Shown: in pieces, positions 21,808-37,947 of the stretch | How positions within the stretch are numbered: the first letter of the stretch is position 1 | Layout: each line of letters begins with the position of its first letter | Origin: Candidatus Cloacimonadales bacterium | Lineage (GTDB): Bacteria > Cloacimonadota > Cloacimonadia > Cloacimonadales > JAFGVF01 | DNA: 64,000 bases | Assembly (NCBI GenBank): GCA_963663475.2 | Contig: CAXXJV010000001.1 | Span: 448,001 to 512,000 of the forward strand | Reading direction: 5' to 3' | Made by a program: the position numbers and the translations under genes | The notes under the pieces: model-generated | Seen by the model: the letters and a program-made list of their open reading frames with translations, nothing else | What the model was told of the DNA's origin: nothing | The model's database searches: none

Positions 21808-24800
21808 ATGTCTCTCCCAAAATTCTCGATAGATAACCCAATTCTCGTAAACATGTTTATGATTATAGTCTTTATATTTGGCTTCATAACCATATACGAG
21901 ATACCAAAAGAAGAAATGCCAGGAATTGAATTCGGTGCATTTAATATTGTAGTTACCTACCCAGGAGTTTCTCCAGAAGAAATTGAACAGAATGTAGTAA
22001 ATAAGATCGAGAAGCAAATCCAACGAATGGATGGTATTGATTATATATCTTCCACTTCCCAAGAAGGAATGGCTACAATCTATGTTCAAATGGAAGCAGA
22101 TGCTGATATGGAAAGAGCTTGGTCGGATATAAATGCAGAACTTGATAAGGTAAATGATTTACCAGAAAACGCTAATGAACCAATAGTTACCGAAATCAAG
22201 ATGCGAGAATTTAATTCAATAGCATCAGTAGTCATTAGTGGTGATAAAGATGATAACACCTTAAGAGAGATTTCAGAAGATTTCGAAGACGCCTTGTTTA
22301 AAATTCCTTTTATCTCAAAAGTAGAAATATCAGGTACAAGAGATCGCCAGTTTTGGATTCAGGTAGATAACGATAGACTAAATCAGCTGGGAATTACTTA
22401 TAATGAAGTTGCTAATATAATTTCTCAAACAAATGCAAATGTTCCTGCGGGAGAATTAGATGTAGGCTCAAGTCAATATCTAGTTCGCACTATGGGAGAA
22501 TATGCAAGTGTAGAGGAAATTGCAAATCAAGTAGTCAGGATGAATAGTGATGGTTCTGCTATCAAGGTAAAAGACTTTGCCCAAGTTTTAGATACCTTAG
22601 AAGACCAAGAAACAATAGGAAAATATAATGGAATGCAAGGAATCAACATATCTGTCTATATGAAGGGAGAAGGTAATATAATAACCGTTATAGAAGATGT
22701 AAAAGAGCTTGCAAATAGATTCCAAGAAGATATTGATGGTATTCGTGTTGATGTAAGAAATGATGGCTCAATCAGGGTAAAGAATAGCATAGCCACTCTT
22801 TCAACAAATGCTCTTATGGGTATTGTTCTTGTATTTATCGTTCTCTATATATTCTTAGGCTTTAAAAATGCTCTTTACGCAGCTTGGGGAATTCCTTTTT
22901 CTTTCCTTCTAACAATTATTTTTATGGATTACTTCGGAGTAACCTTAAATAATCTGAGTCTTTTTGGACTTATCTTAGTCTTGGGTATGATAGTTGATGA
23001 CGCGATTATTGTCTTAGAAAATATCCACAGGTATAGCGAAATGGGTTATACCAAATATGATGCAGCTTTGAAAGGAACTCAAGAAATCATGTGGCCAGTA
23101 ATAGCAGCAGTAGCTACAACAGTCGCTGCTTTTGCTCCAATGCTCTTCATGGAAGGAAACATGGGTAAGTTCTTAGGTAACTTCACTATAGTTGTAAGTT
23201 TAGCCCTTACTGCTTCTCTGATAGAATGTTTATTACTTCTTCCTTCTCATGTTAATGAATTTGGAACAGCAAATTTTGTTGAAGGTCAAGACCATAAGCT
23301 TCATAAAGCCTTAACTTTAAAATATAAGAAAGCAATCTCATGGGTATTAAAACATAGAACAATATCTTTAAGTACAGCCATTCTAGCTCTTATTGCTTCA
23401 GGAGGACTTCTAGTAGCTGGAGCAGTAGGCTTTGAGTTTTTCCCAAAATCAACTCCTAAAACGCTTAAGATTATCATAGAAACTGAAGTAGGTTCAAGTC
23501 TTGATAAAACTAATCAAGTAGTTTCTAAGATTGAACAAGGTATCATTACTATGAAAGAAAAGGACGATATCGAAGCTATTGTTTCTACAATTGGTTCCTA
23601 TAGAGATAGAAGAATTACAGAACAAGCAACTAATTACGCCTCTGTTTCAGTTGATTTAGTTGATGCAGACCTTCTAACTAACGATTATAGGTCTATTCGT
23701 AGAAGAATTATGAAAATACTTGATTCAACTGATGGTTTAAAACTCTATAAACTTAAAGAAGCTCAAGGCGGTGGTCCAAGAGCGGAATATGATATTGAGC
23801 TTAGACTTTATGGTGAAGACATGAAAGAGTTAGATCAGCTTTCAAACTACCTTACTGGTATTCTTGATGAAATACCTGGTGTTGAAGAGATAGAACTAGG
23901 ACAAGCTGATGGTAAATCTGAAATTAGAATTCTTCCTAACAAAAATGCACTCTATATCAATGGTTTAAATGAAGCTTCTATTTCCAATACTGTTGCTACT
24001 GCACTTTATGGAAGAAAAATATCTGTCTTTAGAGGTTCTGGTATTGAAGAATATGACATTATACTCAAGTCAGATAAAGAACAATTATCTAAATTCTCTG
24101 ATTTAGAAAACCTAAAAATACGTAACAAGAATCAACAGTTAATTCCTCTCCAAGATCTAGCTAGCTTCAATATTAGCCAAGCTTCATCTAAAATAGAACA
24201 CTATGATTTAGAAAGAATGTACACAATAACTGCCCAGTGTGGCTTCTATGAAGAAAATGGTGTCCAAAGAAAAAGAGTTCCAAATGAAGTTACAGAAATC
24301 CTCCAAGGTTCTAGAATTAAGGGAACTGAAGGATTACTATCTAACTTTAGTCAAGAAAATCCTGGCTATCGAGTTGAGTTAGGTGGTATCCAGAAACAAC
24401 AAGATGAAACCTATTCTAGCTTAGGTAAAGCTTTTGGGATTGCTCTTTTGTTAATCTTTACTATCCTGGCAACCCAGTTTAAATCATATTTCAAGCCACT
24501 CATTGTTATGTCTGCCCTACCTTTCGCCTTTATTGGTGTGGTATTTGGACTATTTATAACTGGCCAATCATTCTCAATGATGACTATGATTGCCGTGCTT
24601 GCTTTGGCTGGTATTGTGGTGAATGATTCTCTTGTTCTTGTGGATTTCATTAATAAAGAAAGATTTGAAGGTCGTGATAGATGGCATTCTCTTGTTAATG
24701 CAGGAGCTGTAAGACTTAGACCTATCATTATGACTACAGTGACTACTATTGCTGGCTTCTTGCCTATGATATTGTCAAATTCTGTAGCAACAGCTGACTG

Positions 24801-24954
24801 GAAACCAATGGCTACTGCAATTGCCTTCGGACTTGGCTTTGCAACTGTATTAACACTTTTCCTTGTGCCTGTTCTTTACTCTATAGTTGATTCAATCACT
24901 GTGAGAATTACTGGTAAAGGTGAAAAAACTAAAGCTAAAGATGTTCTAAACTAG
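21808..24954 (+). CDS. RND efflux permease (AcrB/AcrD/AcrF family)
   Basis: 1048 aa; YPGVSPEEIE, GMIVDDAIIVLENI, GIVVND and RLRPIIMTT. Confidence 0.95.
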   Translation: MSLPKFSIDNPILVNMFMIIVFIFGFITIYEIPKEEMPGIEFGAFNIVVTYPGVSPEEIEQNVVNKIEKQIQRMDGIDYISSTSQEGMATIYVQMEADADMERAWSDINAELDKVNDLPENANEPIVTEIKMREFNSIASVVISGDKDDNTLREISEDFEDALFKIPFISKVEISGTRDRQFWIQVDNDRLNQLGITYNEVANIISQTNANVPAGELDVGSSQYLVRTMGEYASVEEIANQVVRMNSDGSAIKVKDFAQVLDTLEDQETIGKYNGMQGINISVYMKGEGNIITVIEDVKELANRFQEDIDGIRVDVRNDGSIRVKNSIATLSTNALMGIVLVFIVLYIFLGFKNALYAAWGIPFSFLLTIIFMDYFGVTLNNLSLFGLILVLGMIVDDAIIVLENIHRYSEMGYTKYDAALKGTQEIMWPVIAAVATTVAAFAPMLFMEGNMGKFLGNFTIVVSLALTASLIECLLLLPSHVNEFGTANFVEGQDHKLHKALTLKYKKAISWVLKHRTISLSTAILALIASGGLLVAGAVGFEFFPKSTPKTLKIIIETEVGSSLDKTNQVVSKIEQGIITMKEKDDIEAIVSTIGSYRDRRITEQATNYASVSVDLVDADLLTNDYRSIRRRIMKILDSTDGLKLYKLKEAQGGGPRAEYDIELRLYGEDMKELDQLSNYLTGILDEIPGVEEIELGQADGKSEIRILPNKNALYINGLNEASISNTVATALYGRKISVFRGSGIEEYDIILKSDKEQLSKFSDLENLKIRNKNQQLIPLQDLASFNISQASSKIEHYDLERMYTITAQCGFYEENGVQRKRVPNEVTEILQGSRIKGTEGLLSNFSQENPGYRVELGGIQKQQDETYSSLGKAFGIALLLIFTILATQFKSYFKPLIVMSALPFAFIGVVFGLFITGQSFSMMTMIAVLALAGIVVNDSLVLVDFINKERFEGRDRWHSLVNAGAVRLRPIIMTTVTTIAGFLPMILSNSVATADWKPMATAIAFGLGFATVLTLFLVPVLYSIVDSITVRITGKGEKTKAKDVLN

Positions 24955-25190: not shown

Positions 25191-25262
25191 TCAATCTCTC
25201 AATCTCTCAATCTCTCAATCTCTCAATCTCTCTATCCCTCAATCTCTCAATCTCTCTATCCC
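25191..25262. repeat. Octamer tandem repeat (TCAATCTC) x9, two units variant (TCTATCCC)
   Basis: Read directly; overlaps the last codons of pabC. Confidence 0.9.
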
Positions 25263-25994
25263 TCCAATTAACCAGGGGGAAAATTCAATATCATCAATTG
25301 ATTTAACAGCTACTACTCCCTGAACAGAGTTACTTATAAAAGCTTGTTCGAAGCTTGCTAAGTCATTTAGATAAATATCAACTTCTTCAACAGGGTACTT
25401 GTCAATAATTTTCTGTCTCATAATACCATTTAGAATATTATTATTTGCTTTAGGAGTATAGATTTTCCCTTTTTTACTGAAGAAAATATTAGCATAACAA
25501 CATTCGCAGATCATTCCTTGAGAATTAACTAATAAACCTTCATCATAGCCTTGCTTGCTAGCCAACCTATGCAAGAATACCTGTTCTAGGTAATTAAGAG
25601 ACTTAATATTGCGAAAATCATTAGCTTGATAAGTGTGAGATATGACTTTTATTCGGATGGCTTCTTGCAAAAGATTTAGTTGGGAGGTTAAGATTATCAG
25701 ACTTGATTCTCCTCCTAAATTTTCATAGATTATTATTTTAATTCTCAGGTTATCTTTTTTATTTAAGACAAGTAAATGGCTAATAATCTCCTTATAATCT
25801 ACTTGGGGAAAAGTTAATTTAAGTTTCGCACAAGATGTCTTAAGTCGTAAAATATGCTTATCTAAATCTAAAGCTATTCCGTCTTTTGTTCTTAAAGAAG
25901 TAAAAACCCCATAAGCATATTGGAATCCAGAGCAGGTCAAAGGAATATTAATCTCTGACTCTGATCTATAACAGCCATTATGATAGGCTATCAT
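25239..25994 (-). CDS. pabC: Class IV aminotransferase, probably aminodeoxychorismate lyase
   Basis: GFQYAYGVF, HILRL, IKSLNY, ILNGIMR and SNSVQG; in an operon with pabA and pabB. Confidence 0.8.
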   Translation of the reverse strand: MIAYHNGCYRSESEINIPLTCSGFQYAYGVFTSLRTKDGIALDLDKHILRLKTSCAKLKLTFPQVDYKEIISHLLVLNKKDNLRIKIIIYENLGGESSLIILTSQLNLLQEAIRIKVISHTYQANDFRNIKSLNYLEQVFLHRLASKQGYDEGLLVNSQGMICECCYANIFFSKKGKIYTPKANNNILNGIMRQKIIDKYPVEEVDIYLNDLASFEQAFISNSVQGVVAVKSIDDIEFSPWLIGGIERLRD

Positions 25995-27271
25995 TTTCCC
26001 TCCTTAATATCTAAAAAGTTTCGAATTTTATGTAATATTTCCTGATACTCATTTGCAGGCTGGGAATCAATAGTAATTGCTCCTCCACTATTAACATAAA
26101 GTTTATCATCAACAATAATACCTGTTCTTATCACAATACTGCTAGTTAAAAAAGTCTTATTTACCAGCAAGATACTACCTGTGTAGAGATTTCTTTTATA
26201 GCTTTCCAAATCTTCGATTACTTTCATGGAAGCTATTTTAGGGCAACCAGTTATTGAACCACCAGGAAAGCAGGCTTTTATCAGATTAACAATTGAAATA
26301 TTTGGTTTTAGTCTGCCCTCCACTATCCCAACCAAGTGAAAAACATTAGCAAAAACTTCTAATTTATTGGGGTTAAGAACCTTGACTGAACCAATTTGAC
26401 AGACTTTTGATAAGTCATTTCTTAGTAAATCAACTATCATGTGTAATTCAGCTAAATCTTTCTTAGAACTCAATAAGAAATCTCTATTAGCTTGATCTTC
26501 TTGGTCATTTTTCCCACGTGGTGCAGTTCCCTTAATAGGTTTAGTACTTACCTTTCCTTGGTCACAATAGAGAAATTGTTCAGGAGAAATACTAGCTACA
26601 GTAAAATCTGAGTAGCTTAAATATGCTGAGAAAGGGCCATTGTTCTTCTCATATAAGTTAAGAAAAAAGGCAAGTGAACTACCTATAAAGTCTGCTGAAA
26701 ATTGCTGAGTAAGGTTAACTTCATAGACTTCTCCTTGCAGGATTAAATCTTGAATAGTTTCCACTTTTTGGCAATATTCACTTTCATTACATTCTTGGGT
26801 AAAGTTTGCTAGCTGATAGTTTTCTAAATAATTAGTTTTTTTAGAAGTTTCATATTCAGTGAAAGCAAATTCTATTTCCCAACATTTATTGTTTTTATTA
26901 TCCCAGTAGCGGTAGTTCTTATAGATAACTAATCTAGCTTGAGGAATCTGATATGAGTATATATTCTTATCAGGTATTGACTCTATATAGCGGCCTAAAT
27001 CATAGTTCAAGTAACCTATCCAACCACATCTGTTAGCAGGATAAACTAAATGAGCAAAATCATACTTATTTATCAGTTTATCAAGTTTAGCCCACACTTG
27101 TTTATCATTAGAGAAAAGAGCTTCTTCAACTGGATTCCAGCCACATATTGAAAATTCTGATTGTAGGGGATCACCAGTTAATAAGGCGGAATTTTGGTAG
27201 TTATTTTCTTTAATCCACAAGCTAGCTTCATTAAAATCTACTTGTTTTATTTTAGCAATTTCAATTTTCAT
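25991..27271 (-). CDS. pabB: Aminodeoxychorismate synthase component I
   Basis: GEVYEVN, SPEQF, PIKGT (PabB-type), MIVDLLRNDL and FPGGSITGCPK. Confidence 0.9.
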   Translation of the reverse strand: MKIEIAKIKQVDFNEASLWIKENNYQNSALLTGDPLQSEFSICGWNPVEEALFSNDKQVWAKLDKLINKYDFAHLVYPANRCGWIGYLNYDLGRYIESIPDKNIYSYQIPQARLVIYKNYRYWDNKNNKCWEIEFAFTEYETSKKTNYLENYQLANFTQECNESEYCQKVETIQDLILQGEVYEVNLTQQFSADFIGSSLAFFLNLYEKNNGPFSAYLSYSDFTVASISPEQFLYCDQGKVSTKPIKGTAPRGKNDQEDQANRDFLLSSKKDLAELHMIVDLLRNDLSKVCQIGSVKVLNPNKLEVFANVFHLVGIVEGRLKPNISIVNLIKACFPGGSITGCPKIASMKVIEDLESYKRNLYTGSILLVNKTFLTSSIVIRTGIIVDDKLYVNSGGAITIDSQPANEYQEILHKIRNFLDIKEGK

Positions 27272-27843
27272 TAGCTCTCCAAGTTAGCGAGAAAATTCTT
27301 GATCATCTTACTTCCCTGCGGTGTCATAAAAGATTCAGGGTGAAACTGAATTCCAAAAATAGGCAATCTTTTATGCTCAATAACCATAGGAAGCTGGTCA
27401 CTAGTAGTAGCGGTAATTGCTAGTTGGGAAGATACTTCTGAGATCATAAGAGAGTGATAGCGAGCAACCTTAATCGGTTCACACAAACCTTGCATAATAA
27501 TTCCTGGGTCAAGAATTCTAATTTTTTCCTGTTTACCATGCACTGGATAAGGAGCTTTTATTGTTTTCCCACCAAAGAATTCATTTATACACTGCATACC
27601 TAAACATATACCTAATATTGCTTTAGTTTCATAATACTTGTCTATGATTTCCATAGTTAGGCCAGTATCAGCTGGTCTGCCTGGTCCTGGAGATATTACA
27701 ATTGCCTGGTATTGGGCAACATTTCCCAGCTCTATTGCATTATTCCTTACTACTTCAACTAATCCTGAATAGTTTTGCTGAATTAAGTAATATAAGTTAT
27801 AAGTGAATGAATCATAGTTATCTATCAATAATATTTTTTCCAT
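27271..27843 (-). CDS. pabA: Aminodeoxychorismate synthase component II (glutamine amidotransferase)
   Basis: IDNYDSFTYNL, SPGPG, GICLG, RYHS and QFHPES. Confidence 0.9.
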   Translation of the reverse strand: MEKILLIDNYDSFTYNLYYLIQQNYSGLVEVVRNNAIELGNVAQYQAIVISPGPGRPADTGLTMEIIDKYYETKAILGICLGMQCINEFFGGKTIKAPYPVHGKQEKIRILDPGIIMQGLCEPIKVARYHSLMISEVSSQLAITATTSDQLPMVIEHKRLPIFGIQFHPESFMTPQGSKMIKNFLANLES

Positions 27844-29829: not shown

Positions 29830-30432
29830 ATGTTGTTGAAATTGTATAAATATTATCTCTACCAAAGCAGATTCATTAGTTTTGGAGCTTTACTAGCTGC
29901 CTCAATTTATTCTCTATTAATCCTGGAGATGGAAGTAACCACCACAGTATTGATTATATCAGCTTTTGTTACTAGTTATTATATCTCACAAACCCATGCT
30001 TGTCACAAAGCCTTACTAATGCTACCTCTTTCTAGAAATAAAACTATCTTAGCTGATTACTTAGCCTTGATTAGCAATTTACTTATTAGTAATTCTGTTT
30101 TTTTACTAATATTTTATTGTCTCAAGTTTATGCTAAATAATCCAAAATTACATAGCCCTCTTTCTTATCTACTAATTAACATAGGAGCAAGCATAACTGT
30201 TTCTCTAATAGCAAAATCCTGCCATGATTATTTTAGGAAATTTGGAGGAATTGGACACATTGTTACAATCATAATTGCCATTCTTTTATTTTTTGGATTA
30301 GTAATAGCTTCTTTGTATGTAGTTAAGTTGGCTAGTCCCTTATTTATCTATCTCAACTACGCTATTTATTTATTTTTGATATTTGCATTATTTCTTGTAA
30401 CCAAGAGCTACTTTGCCCGTTTAGACTTTTAG
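29830..30432 (+). CDS. ABC-2 type permease
   Basis: Multi-TM; MLPLSRNKTI motif; operon context. Confidence 0.72.
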   Translation: MLLKLYKYYLYQSRFISFGALLAASIYSLLILEMEVTTTVLIISAFVTSYYISQTHACHKALLMLPLSRNKTILADYLALISNLLISNSVFLLIFYCLKFMLNNPKLHSPLSYLLINIGASITVSLIAKSCHDYFRKFGGIGHIVTIIIAILLFFGLVIASLYVVKLASPLFIYLNYAIYLFLIFALFLVTKSYFARLDF

Positions 30433-30466
30433 AACACAGTAATGTATCCTCTCACTACCTAAATTG

Positions 30467-30496
30467 ACCGATCTTATTACAGAGATCGGTCTTTTT
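30467..30496 (+). terminator. Intrinsic terminator
   Basis: GACCGATCT-loop-AGATCGGTC followed by a T tract. Confidence 0.75.
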
Positions 30497-30577
30497 AACT
30501 TTATAAGACAAAGTTGTGCCATACCATATAAGTGGACTAGTAAATATTACGTCCTTCCACTAGGCATAATTTAGAAT

Positions 30578-32812
30578 CTATTTTAACAGAATCATCTTTC
30601 TTGATTTAGAAAAAGAACCATTTTTCATACGATAAAGATAGACACCTGAAGCCACATTTTCTCCCTGGTCATTTTTACCCTTCCAGACTATGCTATGCCT
30701 TCCTTGTCCATATATATTTTCAGTTAAAGTCTTAACTTTCCTTCCCTTGATATCATAAATTTCAATAAGAACAGGACTTTGCTTTTCAACATAAAAACTA
30801 ATGGTTGTCTGAGGGTTAAAAGGATTTGGATAGTTTTGCTGGAGTTGAGAAAGAAGTGGCGCTACAGGATTATCATCATTAGAGACACTTGTAATTTCTG
30901 CTGTTAAAGGTATTTCAATTAAGGCATTTTCTGGGTCATTAGTATGAACTCTAATATTTGCGTGATATTGACCACTAGGAACTTGGTATTGGGGAACACT
31001 AAGGGTGATAGTTTCAGGATTATTCTCACTAACTACACCCTGCCATTTATCAAGCTGAACCCAAGGTGCATTATAAGATATTTTTATTGCCTGGTAAGAA
31101 GATAAATAGTTGCCGTTGTAGATTACTTGAAGTCCATCACTTGCATCTGCATTTTCTATACCAATAGTAGCACTATATAAGTTACCATCCATCAAGTCAT
31201 AATAGAAATAGATATCTCCATTATCATAGAGGTGGGCTTGGAAGTTAAGGTTTCCAGAACCATTAAAGAAAGGGAAATTTGAATATTGGACTATAAATCT
31301 ATTATTCTCTTGATCATGATAGTAATAAAAATCTGCACTTGACCCATTCAAATCATCCCAGAAGATAGCAATTAAATCATTGGGTTGGAAGGGTGAAGGA
31401 ATAGGATCATTACTATAATCTACCCCATCTTCCCCGAAGGTAATATAACCATTAGTAGATACTCTTGCCTGATGCTTTATTTGACCATAAAATGGGAAAG
31501 CAAAAGGTAAATCTAAATCCACAAAATCATCAGTACTCAAAAAGTTAACATAAGTTCCAAGGTCACTAATATCAAACCAAACATAGTCTAAATTTGTCTG
31601 CTCACTATCATGCCATGAGTAGCCATATAAGTCTGGTCCTCCAGAATTTCTTTCTGTTTCAAATACTTCAATCCAGTATTCAAGATCTTGCTGGCCTAGA
31701 TTATTTAACTCAAAAGAAATCTCTCCATCTCCATTATAAGAGTCAATTTCTAAAGCTGTAGGATAATCAATAGCTGGGAAAGTATAATTATTTATTGAGA
31801 CGGGTATTGAGATATTAGGGTTGTTAGGGTCATTTGTTTCAAACTCAATCTCACCCTCATAAAATCCAGACTGGTCATTTTCAAATTCAACTTCTAACAT
31901 TAAGATATTGCCTAAATCTAGCACCATATCGCCAGTATTAACAATATTAAAAGCTGGATTAGTTGATAGAATATTAGATATTTCTAGTGGATTATTTCCT
32001 AAGTTTTGCAGTAAGATAGTTTTATTAACCTGTTGGCCAGGAACAATAGTTCCAAAATCAAGAGATGATTGATCTAACAAGAGTTCAGGTCCTGGGTTAT
32101 CTGTTAGATATGAGATATATAGTCTCATTAAGTTCTTTTTGGTATTTAAGTTTTCACTATCAATAACAGAGGCTACCAAGAAGGAAGAAGCAATTGTCCT
32201 GTAATTTCTTGTCTCATTAAAAACTGTTCTAACATGATTATCATTTGATCTAAATAAGACTTGCCCATTAGTAGCTGAAAACCAATTATTATGGATATCA
32301 GCGTAAGTATTAACTTGGTGTGCTAGTAACTTACCTTGAGCAAAAGTACCTTCTTGACCTGATAAACTGGATATACCAGTATGAAGCAGACCTTGCCCTT
32401 CAAACTCAAGTCCAAAATAACTTAAAAAGTCTGTGCCATCATGATCTTGACCAATATTTACACCTTCGAAATAAACTGCTCCACCATTATCCAAATAGTT
32501 TATGAGAGCTTCTTGTTGAGGGGTGTTCACGACACCCGGAGGTGTAAGTCCTCAGGATTCACAGAAAGTGCCATTAGACACAATCACAAGGTCATAATCT
32601 GATAGAGAGGTAGTTAGTTCTGGTGCTACTACATTATCTATACCTAATTCTGTAAGGATATTGCCCATAGCATTGGCTGCTGAGCTAGGAAAACCTGTTT
32701 CAGCATTAACTATTTGAGCAGTAGGAACTTCATTCTTCCAAATATATACATTTATTGCAGATAATGACAGTAAAGAAAGCATTATCATCAGTATTATTGT
32801 TAATCTTTTCAT
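30578..32812 (-). CDS. Probable secreted selenoprotein (~744 aa, CxxU, Sec87) with GATase-like, Ig-like and FlgD/T9SS-like C-terminal domains; joins track ORFs 32552..32833 and 30578..32530
   Basis: The TGA at 32554-32552 is in frame with the downstream ORF (7 sense codons between): NGTFCES-U-GLTPPGVVNTPQQEALINYLDNGG. Signal peptide and RBS are only on the first part; the QNYPNPFNP domain is only on the second. Confidence 0.78.
32517..32551 (-). promoter_or_regulatory. Candidate bacterial SECIS element
   Basis: GC-rich hairpin GGGUGU-CGUGA-ACACCC (32537-32521); the loop starts at nt 21 after the UGA with GU at loop positions 2-3. Confidence 0.6.
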
Positions 32813-32870
32813 GTTTATCTCCTTTCTTATCAAACATTATATTGTATTTGTAAGAAAATGCAAATTCAAT

Positions 32871-34265
32871 TTAATTATCTCCGAACAAACCAAACTTTTT
32901 AAGCTTCTCATAGAGAGTTTTTCGACTTATCTTCAAACTAGAAGCAGCTGAACTTTTATTGCCTTTATTTGATTTAATTGCATGCTTGATAACTTCTCTT
33001 TCAAATAGCTCAATTTTCTCACTGATAGATATTGGCTTATTTATAATCTCATTCATTAAATTGTTTTCTTTCTCTAAGGTCTTAGCATCACTATGACCAG
33101 AAATTCTTATATGTTCATTATTTAAAGTAGTACCAGAACAGAGTAAAACTGCTTTTTGAATAACATTAATCAATTCTCTAATATTACCAGACCAGTCATG
33201 ATTCTGTAAGATTTCCATTGTTTGAGGAGCTACTTGCTGAACATTTCTCTTTAGTTCTGTGTTAAATTTAGTAATAAAGTGATTAACTAAAAGGGGAATA
33301 TCAGTTTTCCTAGCTTTTAAATCTGGGACCATTAAATCAAAGCCATTAATTCGATGAAAAAGATCTTCTCTAAAACTACCACGAGACACTTCCTCTAATA
33401 GCTTAGCATTTGTAGCTGAGATTAGTCTAACATCAATCTCAATCTCTTGTGTACCCCCAACTTTTCTATAGATCTTATTTTGCAGAACCCTTAAGAGAGA
33501 AGTTTGAGCAGACGAAGAAAGATTACCTATCTCGTCCAAGAAAATTGTCCCTCCCTCAGCCATTTCAAACAAGCCCTTGCTTTCATTATCTGCTCCAGTA
33601 AAAGCCCCTTTCACAGAACCAAACATTTCTTTTTCAAATAGACTATCCTGAATAGCTCCACAATCCACTGCAATAAAGGGACCATCACTGCGGTTGCTAT
33701 TGTAATGAATATACTTAGCTATCTCTTCCTTTCCAGTTCCATTAGAGCCATTGATAATAACATTTATATCAGTTGTAGCGACTAGAGCTGCTTCTTGGAG
33801 TAAATCCTGAAAGTTTTTTGACTGGCCAATAAGATGATAATTTTGCTTAGCCGGATTAGCTACTTTAGTAGATGTCAAAATCTTACTTGAAATCTTTAAA
33901 CTTCCTATTTTTAGAGCTTTATTAATTATTAAATTAAATTGTTCATCTTCAAAAGGCTTAGTAAGGTAGTCTATAGCTCCTAGTTTAATTGCATGGACAG
34001 CATCAGCTATTTGACCAAATGCTGTTAGCATTATTATAGGGTAAGACTTACACTCTCTAGCTAATTTTTCTAATAACTCAAAGCCAGACATTACGGGCAT
34101 TTGATTATCCAAGATAGTTAAGTCTGGATTATGTTGTTCAAGTTTCATATAACCTTCCATACCATTATAGGCATGGTAGAAAGTTATCTGTCTGTTTTTA
34201 CTAAGTAAAGCTTCTAAGACTGTATGAATATCTTGATTATCATCTACTATAAGTACCTTTTTCAT
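32871..34265 (-). CDS. Sigma-54-dependent response regulator (NtrC family)
   Basis: REC domain, GSNGTGKE, GAFTGA, FLDEIG, WSGNIREL and a Fis-type HTH. Confidence 0.95.
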   Translation of the reverse strand: MKKVLIVDDNQDIHTVLEALLSKNRQITFYHAYNGMEGYMKLEQHNPDLTILDNQMPVMSGFELLEKLARECKSYPIIMLTAFGQIADAVHAIKLGAIDYLTKPFEDEQFNLIINKALKIGSLKISSKILTSTKVANPAKQNYHLIGQSKNFQDLLQEAALVATTDINVIINGSNGTGKEEIAKYIHYNSNRSDGPFIAVDCGAIQDSLFEKEMFGSVKGAFTGADNESKGLFEMAEGGTIFLDEIGNLSSSAQTSLLRVLQNKIYRKVGGTQEIEIDVRLISATNAKLLEEVSRGSFREDLFHRINGFDLMVPDLKARKTDIPLLVNHFITKFNTELKRNVQQVAPQTMEILQNHDWSGNIRELINVIQKAVLLCSGTTLNNEHIRISGHSDAKTLEKENNLMNEIINKPISISEKIELFEREVIKHAIKSNKGNKSSAASSLKISRKTLYEKLKKFGLFGDN

Positions 34266-34525: not shown

Positions 34526-35785
34526 ATGTCGAAAAAGATAATAATATTATGGGGATTAATACTTTTCACAATTAGTGCAATGGCCCTAAATCAGAAAGAC
34601 TTTATAAGAGAATATCAAGATAGACAAGTTGTTGAAATTACAGTAAATGGACTTAAAAGAACCAGTGAGAAAACTTTCCTAAACTGGCTAGAAATTGAAA
34701 CAGGTAAAAAAGTTTCTGAATATGATTTAAATTACATCTTTAAAAGAATTGACGATAAGGGAATTTTTGCTCTTGAAAAAAGTGTTGAGTTCTTTCCTAC
34801 TGATAACCAAGCCCTTATGATTATAAGTGTTGCTGAGAAATTTTCCCTCTTTGCTGTACCTTTCTTCAACTCTGTAGATGGTGATAAAATGTATGGTGGA
34901 GCAGCCCTAGACAGTAACTTCTTAGGCTATGGAGCAACCTTACTAGGTGTTGGTGCTTTCAGTAAAAAGGATGTGACAACTTTCCTACTACTCACCCAAG
35001 ATGAAATGATAAATAACCAATATGCAGGTAAAATTATCCTTAATTATCGTACCAATGAGATAGAAATGACCGATATCTATGACAATGACCCCTACTATGA
35101 AAGTAAGCAAAAAACAATAAACCTAGGGGCAAGTATTGGGAAAAAATTCTTTGATAAGAAACTTACTATCGGACCTGATCTGGAATGGCAGAAAATTAAA
35201 ATGGATAATGAAGATAATAATCCAGAGAAAGATGCTAACTTAATCTTTCCAGGCTTACTTATGACCTATGATAACACTAATCAAAATTTCGTTTTTAGAG
35301 ATGGTTTTAAGGCAGAATCACTTACATCAAGCGTCTTCTCATTAGATGATAACTATGATAACTTCTTCCGTTCTTACACTAAATTATCTTATTCCACAAC
35401 TTATGATTCTAAGATTAATTTTACTTTAAAAAATACCTTTGGTTTGTTTGATAGACCTGATAATGCTGAAGAAGTTCTCAGTACTTACCACGGAACTAAA
35501 TCACTTCCCAACATGCAAGTATGGGCTGATGATTGGGTTAACGGAGCTTTTATAGTAGAACATACTTTGATAAGTAAACATAAACTAAACCCTACAATGT
35601 CATACTATTATGAAGGGGGTTATTATAACAATGATGGACTTAATGAAAAATATCATGGAATAGGAAGCGAGTTTAAAGTCTATTTCGATAAAGTAGCAAT
35701 CCCTGCTATAGGTCTCGGTCTAGCCTATAATTTCACCAATGAATCTACTATCCTAACCTTTAGCTTTGGCATGGGTGGGGAATAA
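34526..35785 (+). CDS. Outer-membrane protein, Omp85/BamA-TamA-like (one POTRA domain plus beta-barrel)
   Basis: Signal peptide; ITVNGLKRTSE POTRA-like start; VAEK...DSNFLGYG barrel entry; amphipathic strands. Confidence 0.65.
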   Translation: MSKKIIILWGLILFTISAMALNQKDFIREYQDRQVVEITVNGLKRTSEKTFLNWLEIETGKKVSEYDLNYIFKRIDDKGIFALEKSVEFFPTDNQALMIISVAEKFSLFAVPFFNSVDGDKMYGGAALDSNFLGYGATLLGVGAFSKKDVTTFLLLTQDEMINNQYAGKIILNYRTNEIEMTDIYDNDPYYESKQKTINLGASIGKKFFDKKLTIGPDLEWQKIKMDNEDNNPEKDANLIFPGLLMTYDNTNQNFVFRDGFKAESLTSSVFSLDDNYDNFFRSYTKLSYSTTYDSKINFTLKNTFGLFDRPDNAEEVLSTYHGTKSLPNMQVWADDWVNGAFIVEHTLISKHKLNPTMSYYYEGGYYNNDGLNEKYHGIGSEFKVYFDKVAIPAIGLGLAYNFTNESTILTFSFGMGGE

Positions 35786-35792
35786 GATTTAC

Positions 35793-36881
35793 TTAGGAAT
35801 GACTTTCCAAAGGTAAAGAAAAATAGAAAGTAGAACCTTTATCTAACTGACTTACTAACCAGATTTTCCCCTCATGGGCTGTGATTATCTGTTTAGATAT
35901 TGCTAACCCCAGTCCAGTTGATTGCTCATTGATTAAGGTGCTTGATCTAGCTTTTTTGAAAGGCTCAAAAATTAAGCCAAGTTCACTCTCATCAATACCA
36001 AAACCTTGGTCTTTACAAGAGAATATTAAGTTTGTACTATTAACTATGCAGGCAATTTCTATTTCTGAATTAGTTGGGGAATATTTAATAGCATTAGAGA
36101 TAAAGTTACTTATAACTTGCTGAATTTTATTCTTATCAATATTTACATAAAGGCCTTTCGGGGCCTTATAACCTGTTACTTGAATAGACTTCTTAGCCCC
36201 AAGGGTACTAGCCCATTTGATATTTTCAGCATATAAATCGTAAAAGTCAATAAGCTCTTTATTGAGAGATACTTTACCTGACTCTAAATATGTTAAATCT
36301 AGAAGTTCCTCAACTAGACCTAGCATGAATTTAGCTGTTGAGTTTATATCTGCAATAAATTCAAGTTTTTCTTCATCTAAGCTATCCTGGCAATCTTCAA
36401 GCAGAAGCTGACTATAACTATAAATAACGGATATTGGATTTCTTAAATCATGGGCTGCTACACCTACTAACCTGTTTTTCAGTTCATTAACCTTGATCAA
36501 TTCTTTATTCTTTTTATTCAGGGCTTTTTGAGTTAAGATAAGTTCATTATTGATACTTGTTAAACTCCCGAAGAGTCCATAATAATCGCTTTCTTCTTGT
36601 TCAGCTAAAATAAGGTAATAATCTTCAACAGCAATACTCTTGAAATATAGAAGAAGGAAGTTTTGACCAGCAGGGACATATAACTCATACTCTGAATATG
36701 ATTCTTCATCAGTTTTCTGGGCTTGAAGAAAAAAAGCTTGGGCTTTTTCATATGTAGCTTGGTCAAATAGTTCAACAAACTTCTGCCCTTTTTGAACTTC
36801 TAACTGAGGTGATTTATTGAAGATTATTTCTTGGATAATGCCTAGGTGACTACACTTTAGAGCGAGTATGGCTTTTCTCAT
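35793..36881 (-). CDS. Soluble sensor histidine kinase
   Basis: AAHDLRNP, SNAIKYS, DQGFGI, GLGLAI and GSTFYF; no TM segment. Confidence 0.93.
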   Translation of the reverse strand: MRKAILALKCSHLGIIQEIIFNKSPQLEVQKGQKFVELFDQATYEKAQAFFLQAQKTDEESYSEYELYVPAGQNFLLLYFKSIAVEDYYLILAEQEESDYYGLFGSLTSINNELILTQKALNKKNKELIKVNELKNRLVGVAAHDLRNPISVIYSYSQLLLEDCQDSLDEEKLEFIADINSTAKFMLGLVEELLDLTYLESGKVSLNKELIDFYDLYAENIKWASTLGAKKSIQVTGYKAPKGLYVNIDKNKIQQVISNFISNAIKYSPTNSEIEIACIVNSTNLIFSCKDQGFGIDESELGLIFEPFKKARSSTLINEQSTGLGLAISKQIITAHEGKIWLVSQLDKGSTFYFSLPLESHS

Positions 36882-36882
36882 A

Positions 36883-37947
36883 TCATCCTGCCACTTTCAA
36901 GAGTTTGTCTGCAAATCTTATAGCATGGTCTGGATCAGTAGCCCAACCATCAGCACCTACCTTTTTCCATAAAGTCTTATCATTGTTAAAAGGGTAACCA
37001 CCAACCATTATTGGAGTTTTTATACCCTCATTTCTTATCTTCTGAATAAGCTTAGATAGCTTATCAAGATGAAAAACAACCGTAACAGAAAGAGCAATTA
37101 AATCAGGTTTCTTATTCTTAATCATAGTAATTATCTCATTATCTGGTAGGTTAGAACCTAAAAACCAAGTATCCCACCCTTCTATCTCAAAAATATCAGT
37201 AAGCATCCTAAGTCCTATTTCATGTAATTCTCCACTAATGCAAGAAGCTACAAGAGTTTTATTCTCTTGTTTATCGCTTAAAATATAGGGATATATTTGG
37301 GAAATCACTAATTGAATAAGACTTGTAATATAGTGTTCTTGAGCTATACTTATCTTGTTACTGTGCCAGAGATGACCAACCTCATATTGAACTTTTTGTA
37401 AAACATCTAAGTAAATCACTTTAATAGGGACTCCTTGCTTAACCAGTGAGAGAATTAGTTTAGAGGCATCATGTCTCTTGCCTGCTAAAGCGAAAGAGAG
37501 AAATTCTAAAGCATATTTACTATAAGGATTTGCTGGATCAATATAGCTTACATCATCAGATACTTCACTTTTAAGTTCGTCTATTCCTTGATTAATGAAA
37601 TCATTTATGAGCTTATGATATTCAATAGGTAGATTTTGATTTAAAATTAATTTCATAGCTCTAAAATTCTCAATCAGAGAAACTGAAGACATCCCTAAAT
37701 CTTGCATTAACTTCTTAAGCCATTTAGCATAGGAAACAAAAACTCCAGGAGAATTTAATTCTATTGCTTGACTAAGATAAGATAAGGTATAACCAATATC
37801 TTTGAGACTAGCCTCTCTTCTCTTTTCACTTTGGGGGCCTTTAGTATATGGTGCTATATCAAACTGCTTCTTCAATATCAGTGGTCTCAAACTATTATTC
37901 AATTCGTCTATCTGTACTTTTAGCTCTTCATTCAATTTATTAAGCAT
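36883..37947 (-). CDS. Cobalamin-binding sensor protein (globin/phycobiliprotein-like N-domain plus CarH-type B12 domain)
   Basis: W-x9-EH (WHSNKISIAQEH), ExHxxG (ELHEIG), IMVGG and VGADG. Confidence 0.85.
   Translation of the reverse strand: MLNKLNEELKVQIDELNNSLRPLILKKQFDIAPYTKGPQSEKRREASLKDIGYTLSYLSQAIELNSPGVFVSYAKWLKKLMQDLGMSSVSLIENFRAMKLILNQNLPIEYHKLINDFINQGIDELKSEVSDDVSYIDPANPYSKYALEFLSFALAGKRHDASKLILSLVKQGVPIKVIYLDVLQKVQYEVGHLWHSNKISIAQEHYITSLIQLVISQIYPYILSDKQENKTLVASCISGELHEIGLRMLTDIFEIEGWDTWFLGSNLPDNEIITMIKNKKPDLIALSVTVVFHLDKLSKLIQKIRNEGIKTPIMVGGYPFNNDKTLWKKVGADGWATDPDHAIRFADKLLKVAG

Follow-up and report, generated by a model that had tools for sequence, protein, structure and literature searches.

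The 64,000-nucleotide stretch analysed here (the window) comes from a genome assembly of a Candidatus Cloacimonadales bacterium (GCA_963663475.2, contig CAXXJV010000001.1, positions 448,001 to 512,000). Between positions 30578 and 32812 its minus strand carries what is most likely a single gene, split by annotation at an in-frame TGA and encoding a 744-residue exported protein that is predicted to contain selenocysteine (Sec, U) in a Cys-x-x-Sec motif. Translation table 11 yields two open reading frames (ORFs) from this region, one of 93 amino acids (32552-32833) and one of 650 amino acids with a GTG start at 32530 (30578-32530). An earlier note on this DNA had proposed that the TGA joins the two ORFs, and a single open frame with read-through was what was found, with homologous loci in other genomes organized alike. 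The minus strand reads TTC TGT GAA TCC TGA GGA CTT ACA CCT CCG GGT GTC GTG AAC, in which the TGT of Cys84 lies at 32563-32561. The TGA at 32554-32552 is codon 87 and is the lone interruption of a 744-codon frame running from the ATG at 32812 to the TAG at 30578. The AAGGAG ribosome binding site that had been placed ahead of the first ORF was also found (see the table of features below). Judging from the comparisons that follow, it is highly probable that 30578-32812 is a genuine selenoprotein gene.

Related loci were identified with several types of search. A single-protein search found four, all in close Cloacimonadales or Cloacimonadota metagenome-assembled genomes (MAGs). In 41 related genomes, a six-frame search gave matches at 26 places, spread over 21 of the genomes; 16 of the places had exactly one in-frame TGA and 10 had none. 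Every TGA in the resulting alignment shared one column, in the motif G-x-[F/Y/W]-C-x-x-U-G-x-T-P-P. Four of the TGA-less loci had Cys in the Sec column: three of these read WC(T/L)GCGSTPP, and the fourth, WRTGCSATPP, had lost the first Cys. The other six TGA-less loci were distant matches in which the loop was missing entirely.

A profile search of the phylum matched 83 of 232 genomes at E ≤ 1e-15. Counted from the table of matches, there were 103 rows at E ≤ 1.4e-54, 94 with one TGA and nine without. Among the 102 distinct 72-nt segments, 94 contained TGA and eight contained TGC, all in one motif column, so that the Sec column of G-x-[FYW]-C-x-x-[U/C]-G-x-T-P-P was U or C in 102 of 102. The TGA forms came from 74 genomes, with identity down to about 28%, and several genomes held two to five paralogues. 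The first Cys of the motif was kept in at least 90% of the sequences in two alignments. The family strongly prefers Sec, with UGA in about 92% of the sampled loci. The domain continued unbroken across codon 87 in all 102 distinct segments, in agreement with the earlier proposal that one domain spans the TGA. In a quick tree, seven of the Cys forms grouped in one clade (support of 100 in the Shimodaira-Hasegawa-like approximate likelihood ratio test, SH-aLRT), and the eighth fell beside this clade without a resolved position. When the tree was rooted with loop-less relatives, the Cys forms were nested among the Sec forms; this was a quick tree with long branches. The pattern suggests that there may have been one or two switches from Sec to Cys, which would have left 'fossil' hairpins behind.

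The codon itself is well supported. Public sequencing runs were compared over 30400-33000, using four runs from three studies, two of them wastewater or microbial-mat DNA and two of them metatranscriptome libraries. No difference was seen at 32552-32554 in any of the four. The site was covered by X5 (record 9, whole stretch), X9 (record 23, 32263-33000), X7 (record 11, 30400-32784), and X15 (record 7, 32320-32703). One contig from an RNA library, 2523 nt long, spanned 30400-32784, which is nearly the entire read-through gene; the RNA-library contigs that bridge the TGA show its presence and do not in themselves prove transcription. In the genome as a whole (3.30 Mb, 33% G+C), 1297 frames stay open for at least 300 codons; 141 of them end in TGA, and only two of the 141 remain open for at least 150 codons beyond it. 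TGA thus works as an ordinary stop here, and what had been stated for the rest of the window holds genome-wide. Both flanks of the TGA at codon 87 evolve as coding sequence in one frame. Among 28 pairs from eight orthologues, differences at codon positions 1, 2, and 3 numbered 372, 261, and 921 in the 66 codons upstream and 366, 165, and 786 in the 66 codons downstream, and there is purifying selection on both sides.

A hairpin resembling a selenocysteine insertion sequence (SECIS), as claimed in the earlier note, was present after the TGA. Its stem begins 14 nt past the UGA, the spacing from the UGA to the apical loop is 20 nt, and loop positions 2-3 are G-U. In the bacterial SECIS (bSECIS) model of Zhang and Gladyshev, as summarised in PMC13188914, a loop of 3-9 nt caps a stem of 4-16 bp, one of the first two loop nucleotides is G and the next is usually G or U, 16-37 nt separate the UGA from the loop, and the minimum free energy is -7.5 kcal/mol or lower. 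The window hairpin agrees with the model in all four respects (5-nt loop and 6-bp stem, loop C-G-U-G-A, 20-nt spacing, -7.6 kcal/mol). The first three were also found in 91 of the 94 TGA sequences, with a spacing of 20 nt in 54, 21 nt in 30, 29 nt in six, and 19 nt in one. The loop started with CGU, GGU, GUU, GUC, GUG, or AGU in 87 of the 91. Covariation was evaluated for a fixed structure on an ungapped alignment of the 102 sequences with 500 shuffles. Paired cells made up 74.4% compared to 58.8% in the shuffles, and the covariation score was 0.451 compared to 0.209, values reached by none of the 500 shuffles in either case; slid controls gave at most 0.198. Five of the six stem pairs changed on both sides, and columns 24-34, for instance, were U-A in 30 sequences, A-U in 25, and C-G in 13. 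Perfect stems of 6 bp or longer were found in 81 of the 102 real sequences and in 22% of synonymous-codon shuffles.

The position and distribution of the hairpin varied within the family. Six TGA loci (L012, L015, L018, L019, L072, and L080) and one Cys form (L050) had no hairpin at the usual place. This sub-family carries GCUC-GGUC-GAGC 9 nt further 3', giving a spacing of 29 nt, and its SECIS seems to have moved within the coding sequence. In eight Cys-form loci (L016, L017, L023, L055, L059, L063, L073, and L079) there was a strong hairpin (-8.6 to -10.1 kcal/mol) with the loop GGUCG 20 nt past the TGC, and compensatory changes were seen between paralogues among the Cys-form hairpins. The hairpin of the Cys forms may be a 'fossil SECIS' or a structure with another role.

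The genome encodes the machinery for Sec insertion. The selB, selA, and tRNA-Sec genes are clustered at C1:2346370-2349783, and the tRNA-Sec scored 62.5 bits against a gathering score of 47. The selD gene (C1:619467-620393) itself carries an in-frame TGA, and the hairpin after it resembles the window hairpin in geometry: its loop (GGU) contains GU and is spaced 20 nt from the UGA. A grdA gene with one TGA (C1:1036454-1037989) adjoins grdB, and no match to FdhA was found in the genome. A crude genome-wide scan for selenoproteins was too strict, as it recovered selD and the 30578-32812 gene and missed grdA. There are also three near-identical copies, at C1:1399892, 783033, and 56048, in which a TGA is followed by CGCGG-GAUUCCAGC-CCGCG within similar open frames (DSSPRLRRUQVV...); these probably belong to a repeated element and not to a selenoprotein gene.

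Across the phylum, SelA was found in 109 of the 232 genomes. Cross-tabulated with the TGA and Cys forms, it was present in 69 of 74 TGA-form genomes and in all six genomes with Cys forms only. In family f4, the largest family without SelA, neither SelA nor the selenoprotein domain was found in any of 98 genomes. The earlier note had named the findings that would speak against a selenoprotein of about 744 residues with Cys84 and Sec87, namely a genome lacking Sec machinery, homologues with Trp, Arg, or Gly at the site, or reads lacking the TGA. What was found was selA, selB, selC, and selD in the genome, 94 TGA and eight TGC among 102 segments with a single Trp exception described below, and an unchanged TGA in four of four public runs, all of which support the proposed selenoprotein.

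Several observations weigh against decoding of the UGA as Sec under the direction of this hairpin. RNAalifold predicted no consensus pair from the ungapped 102-sequence alignment, the hairpin occupies at least three registers across the sub-families, and no Rfam covariance model matched 32400-32650 at E ≤ 10. The folding energy of a 91-nt segment was unexceptional (z of 0.12 against dinucleotide shuffles), the family mean z was -0.69 against synonymous shuffles, and only 32 of the 94 hairpins reached -7.5 kcal/mol alone (median -6.5). The coding sequence for P-P-G-x-V-G itself favours a hairpin, with a stem of at least 5 bp appearing in 59% of synonymous shuffles. The hairpin is also not exclusive to UGA forms, because the eight Cys forms retain it (-3.8 to -10.1 kcal/mol). 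Five of the 74 genomes with a TGA form, all of them fragmented MAGs (G158, G226, G173, G166, and G146), had no match to SelA. Finally, a 344-amino acid metagenomic protein (P0018) has W in the Sec/Cys column (CSGWGLTPP) and is the sole exception to the pattern; this residue is either a real TGG or the product of a gene call made under a table in which TGA encodes Trp.

Some of these observations are also those expected if the UGA were decoded as Cys, Trp, or Gly, by near-cognate read-through or local recoding, or if it served mainly as a selenium-responsive attenuator with a mostly truncated product. Retention of the hairpin in the Cys forms and the W of one homologue are in favour of such an explanation, and Sec insertion competes with termination. 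We consider it quite unlikely nevertheless, for TGA is an ordinary stop genome-wide, a single column that alternates between TGA and Cys within a CxxC-type motif is a classic hallmark of Sec, SelA is present in all but five of the 74 genomes that have a TGA form, the domain is missing from all 98 of the SelA-less f4 genomes, and the hairpin geometry matches that of the genome's own selD.

The way in which the family has been annotated bears on a second explanation. When 5.8 billion proteins were searched with residues 25-240 by way of a word index, 13 proteins came back, each 638-650 amino acids long and each representing the downstream piece only, with no full-length call of the protein among them. 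An exhaustive HMMER search covering 1.84 billion metagenomic cluster representatives gave 1459 relatives with E ≤ 0.001, of which 709 had E ≤ 1e-10. Of the best 150 of the 1459 representatives (50%-identity clusters), 93 start at profile positions 67-111, directly past the Sec column, with M as the first residue in 78 and V or L in 15. Starts of this kind are what gene callers leave behind when they resume beyond a stop codon. The other column-covering representatives among the best 150 comprised a few CxxC forms, among which are P0015, P0016, P0017, P0019, P0020, and P0023, the one W form, and many loop-less forms. The loop-less forms of the domain lie within C25 and S8 peptidases exported by the type IX secretion system (T9SS).

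It could be supposed from such records that there are two genes, one for an 86-residue secreted peptide ending at the TGA and one for an independent 650-residue protein starting from the GTG at 32530. These are exactly the table 11 ORFs and are what current gene callers annotate, pieces of 638-650 amino acids exist in public records, and most of the shortened representatives (78 of 93) begin with M. Two genes are very unlikely all the same. One conserved domain crosses the TGA unbroken in 102 segments, and Cys-form homologues (L010, L016, L017, and P0015-P0017) are single uninterrupted proteins. The downstream piece has a T9SS sorting domain and on its own would be without a signal peptide. 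Furthermore, the called downstream starts scatter over profile positions 67-111, as would be expected of arbitrary first-start calls and not of a conserved start. A nonsense mutation, a pseudogene, or a sequencing error at codon 87, which has nothing in its favour except the presence of the stop codon, is of negligible likelihood given a TGA in the same column in 94 distinct segments from 74 genomes at identities down to about 28%, its recurrence in four of four independent runs, and purifying selection on both sides.

The predicted selenoprotein consists of several domains, which are listed with the other features of the gene in the table. The promoter-like site sits in the 58-nt gap behind the upstream gene, in a region that contains 17 such sites compared to 11.5 expected from shuffles.

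Table. Positions of features predicted at the selenoprotein locus, in order of transcription; coordinates are those of the window.
Feature	Coordinates	Strand	Description
Promoter-like TTTGCA-17 nt-TATAAT	32836..32864	-	10/12 consensus positions; consensus match only
Shine-Dalgarno-like AAGGAG	32819..32824	-	6 nt before ATG
Complete predicted selenoprotein gene	30578..32812	-	ATG 32812-32810, Sec-UGA 32554-32552, stop TAG 30580-30578; 744 residues
Signal-peptide-like N-terminal segment (MKRLTIILMIMLSLLSLSAI...)	32753..32812	-	Hydrophobic, judged by eye; homologues similar
N-terminal alpha/beta domain, residues 22-237	32102..32749	-	Carries C-x-x-U-G-x-T-P-P loop; 1459 relatives at E ≤ 0.001
Cys84-Glu-Ser-Sec87 motif	32552..32563	-	TGT GAA TCC TGA; context F-C-E-S-U-G-L-T-P-P-G-V-V-N
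SECIS-like hairpin	32521..32537	-	6-bp stem GGGUGU/ACACCC, loop CGUGA, -7.6 kcal/mol for hairpin alone
Immunoglobulin (Ig)-like domain (HYDIN/VesB-like, DUF1573-like), residues 242-336	31805..32089	-	PF22544 48.7 bits, cut-off 25.5
NIDO-like (nidogen-like) core, residues 450-506	31295..31465	-	PF06119 25.0 bits, exactly at cut-off 25
T9SS type A C-terminal sorting domain, residues 661-741	30590..30832	-	TIGR04183 39.1 bits (cut-off 23), PF18962 34.1 bits (cut-off 27)

The C-terminal sorting domain that had been recognized from the sequence proved to be of the T9SS type A, over the cut-off in both TIGR04183 and PF18962. The PorU sortase, the sole component of the T9SS machinery that was searched for, was present in the genome (571.6 bits compared to a cut-off of 420). 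The genome also appears to have a large T9SS secretome, with 51 scored sorting-domain matches and more than 100 places found by tblastn with one protein carrying the C-terminal domain. The NIDO-like core lies inside a longer conserved central region, in which the block NGYLTFG...FWDDL was found in 14 full-length relatives. Short paralogues of about 320-360 amino acids consist of the N-terminal domain and the sorting domain only.

No Pfam or NCBIfam family matched residues 1-240, and the same was true of 80 diverse members of the family, barring scattered chance hits. In line with the non-thioredoxin fold put forward in the earlier note, no thioredoxin-like family matched the N-terminal domain at E ≤ 1 in any of the 80 members. 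The note had further described a GATase/flavodoxin-like domain (GATase, glutamine amidotransferase) reaching across the stop; the single domain across the stop stood, and the assignment of this fold received only faint support. The faint Pfam matches were to GLMA_2nd in three of the 80 members, ThuA in two, and DUF4159 in one, three families of the class I glutamine-amidotransferase-like clan. Aligned with a DUF4159 profile from the same phylum, the N-terminal domain gave a hhalign probability of 23.5% (E=8.7e-4, 47 columns). This match is not significant; it spans 'L..YD-hhhh ... s.e...L..YL..GG.hY' (strand/loop/helix/GG.hY), and against DUF4159 the profile alignment shows the CxxUGxTPP loop as inserted. 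The control values were 0.4% against a catalytic class I GATase and 0.1% against a receiver domain. Among the comparison families in the 41 genomes, GLMA_2nd (1 of 41) and Glyco_hydro_42M (6 of 41) were too rare for profiles, and ThuA occurred in one genome, below the cut-off. A search of PDB sequences with the N-terminal domain profile gave chance hits only (best E=0.065), and a search with the whole protein gave matches only to the HYDIN and FlgD Ig-like domains.

Established Sec decoding and the domains of the protein together suggest how it might be made and delivered. SelB-GTP carrying Sec-tRNA(Sec) would bind the hairpin on the translating mRNA and insert Sec at codon 87; when selenium is lacking, translation would end after 86 residues. 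The N-terminal signal peptide would direct export by the Sec translocon, and the T9SS would then carry the protein across the outer membrane by means of the C-terminal sorting domain. The protein is probably anchored on the cell surface, as its predicted domains suggest. There, the Cys84/Sec87 site could act on disulfides, on sulfur or selenium species, or on metals. Whether as a reversible selenenylsulfide or as a binding site for soft metals or chalcogens on the cell surface, a role for the Cys84-Sec87 pair of this kind is conceivable, and we regard it as somewhat doubtful.

The gene looks monocistronic. Directly upstream on the same strand is a gene for a sigma-54-dependent response regulator (32871-34265), and an operon of the two was considered and rejected, as the adjacency was absent in every other locus with flanks. 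Further upstream are a 419-amino acid ORF without a Pfam family on the plus strand (34526-35785), between the response regulator and a minus-strand histidine kinase (35793-36881), and a minus-strand gene for a protein with a B12-binding domain (36883-37947). On the other side, genes for an aminotransferase class IV, a chorismate-binding enzyme, and a class I GATase are adjacent on the minus strand at 25239-27843, in a pabC-pabB-pabA-like arrangement, and an AcrB-type transporter is encoded at 21808-24954.

In one genome (G144, L159:8587-15982), three selenoprotein paralogues flank genes for a DsbD_N-like protein, a 4Fe-4S protein, two TlpA-like proteins, a DUF6029 barrel, a T9SS cargo protein, and a CcdA-type membrane protein. 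The genome of the window has, at C1:823051-828570, genes for a full DsbD (571 amino acids), a lipoprotein with WCGTCP, a TlpA-like protein, a DUF6029 barrel, and a T9SS-cargo protein. This DsbD/TlpA-like/DUF6029 module lies 343 kb from the selenoprotein gene, and within 10 kb the module was found, at least in part, in three of 44 neighbourhoods, including the one in which it was discovered. As a possible periplasmic reductant of the motif, the module is a weak lead.

In anaerobic digesters, the uncultured Cloacimonadota are key as fermenters and syntrophs, and all named members of the family described here come from this phylum. Their public names are 'hypothetical protein', 'T9SS type A sorting domain-containing protein', 'FlgD immunoglobulin-like domain containing protein', and 'large repetitive protein'. 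Nearly all public members are mis-annotated as truncated 'hypothetical' or 'T9SS sorting domain' proteins, so that the finding sets right how an entire Cloacimonadota family is annotated. Full-text literature searches returned no relevant publication on selenoproteins of the Cloacimonadota, the one related item being a paper on tRNA-Sec. A word search of two phylum-wide Cloacimonadota papers found no word beginning 'seleno', 'T9SS', or 'type IX'. No selenoprotein brought to the cell surface by the T9SS was found in full-text literature searches, as judged on titles and abstracts, or in Table 1 of PMC13188914.

It is probable that the family has not been described before. Decoding would follow an established mechanism; what appears to be new is the family, together with its scaffold, its marked preference for Sec, and the place to which the protein is sent. 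It would add a selenoprotein family that uses Sec as a rule and Cys as the exception, whose scaffold is not of the thioredoxin type and whose destination is the cell surface. Taken all together, a phylum-wide and previously undescribed Sec-preferring family, founded on the window protein as the first selenoprotein known to be exported by the T9SS and displayed on the surface, with its selenol in a loop inserted into a non-thioredoxin scaffold and a chemistry exerted outside the cell, is a combination that we put forward tentatively, as one falling just short of probable. If it is correct, then loop-less versions of this scaffold act as accessory domains in secreted C25 and S8 proteases, the extracellular roles of the selenoproteins may be disulfide reduction of protein substrates or the handling of sulfur, selenium, or metals in strict anaerobes, and the family could be a main reason why the Cloacimonadota keep the Sec trait. 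It raises the question of what task a selenol has outside an anaerobic cell and by what means it is kept reduced there, and also of whether the supply of selenium and the dosing of trace elements in digesters work in part via such surface proteins.

For comparison with known systems there was the catalogue of PMC13188914 (2026), in which 119 prokaryotic selenoprotein families are listed in Table 1. None of the families in that table fits the window protein. NCBIfam 20.0 gave no match on residues 1-240 and a consistent match in none of the 80 members, and the earlier view that the protein lies outside the known selenoprotein families held within these two sources. The nearest entries in the catalogue were the FCYXU TonB-dependent receptor, DUF1573/OS_HP2, and the GATase-type selenoprotein, and on the comparisons made here the window protein belongs to none of the three.

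The FCYXU TonB-dependent receptor resembles the window protein in being a predicted extracytoplasmic selenoprotein with a CxxU motif, Cys homologues, and a bSECIS right 3' of the UGA. However, its fold and family are unrelated, and neither the window protein nor any of 80 relatives had an NCBIfam match to it. The receptor is inserted in the outer membrane, whereas the window protein is predicted T9SS cargo with a C-terminal sorting domain. DUF1573/OS_HP2 (PF07610, NF041425) shares a related Ig-like domain, located at residues 242-339 of the window protein (PF07610 E=6e-4), but NF041425 scored only 32.9 bits, far under its family cut-off of 100. The Sec of DUF1573/OS_HP2 is given in PMC13188914 as part of a UGC motif inside the Ig-like domain, while the only UGA of the window gene is in a separate N-terminal domain. 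The GATase-type selenoprotein, as it is described in the same catalogue, also has its Sec on an alpha/beta scaffold of the GATase type and not on a thioredoxin fold. In that cytoplasmic enzyme, Sec replaces the Cys of the nucleophile elbow, whereas the predicted Sec of the window protein is in a different loop, in an exported domain that does not look catalytic. The GATase-type selenoprotein likewise gave no NCBIfam match in the window protein or the 80 relatives.

Two further comparisons concern scaffold and function. The N-terminal domain has the local, non-significant profile match to DUF4159/ThuA-like proteins, which are non-catalytic members of the class I glutamine-amidotransferase-like fold, with the CxxUGxTPP loop inserted. 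TlpA, DsbA, and DsbG-like proteins, which have CxxC or UxxC motifs on a thioredoxin fold, are exported, as the window protein is predicted to be, and like it have a motif with two-residue spacing and show alternation of Sec and Cys. They differ in that their order is UxxC, while that of the window protein is CxxU, in a loop missing from its loop-less relatives. These extracytoplasmic thioredoxin-fold oxidoreductases are most likely the best available analogy for how the window protein may work.

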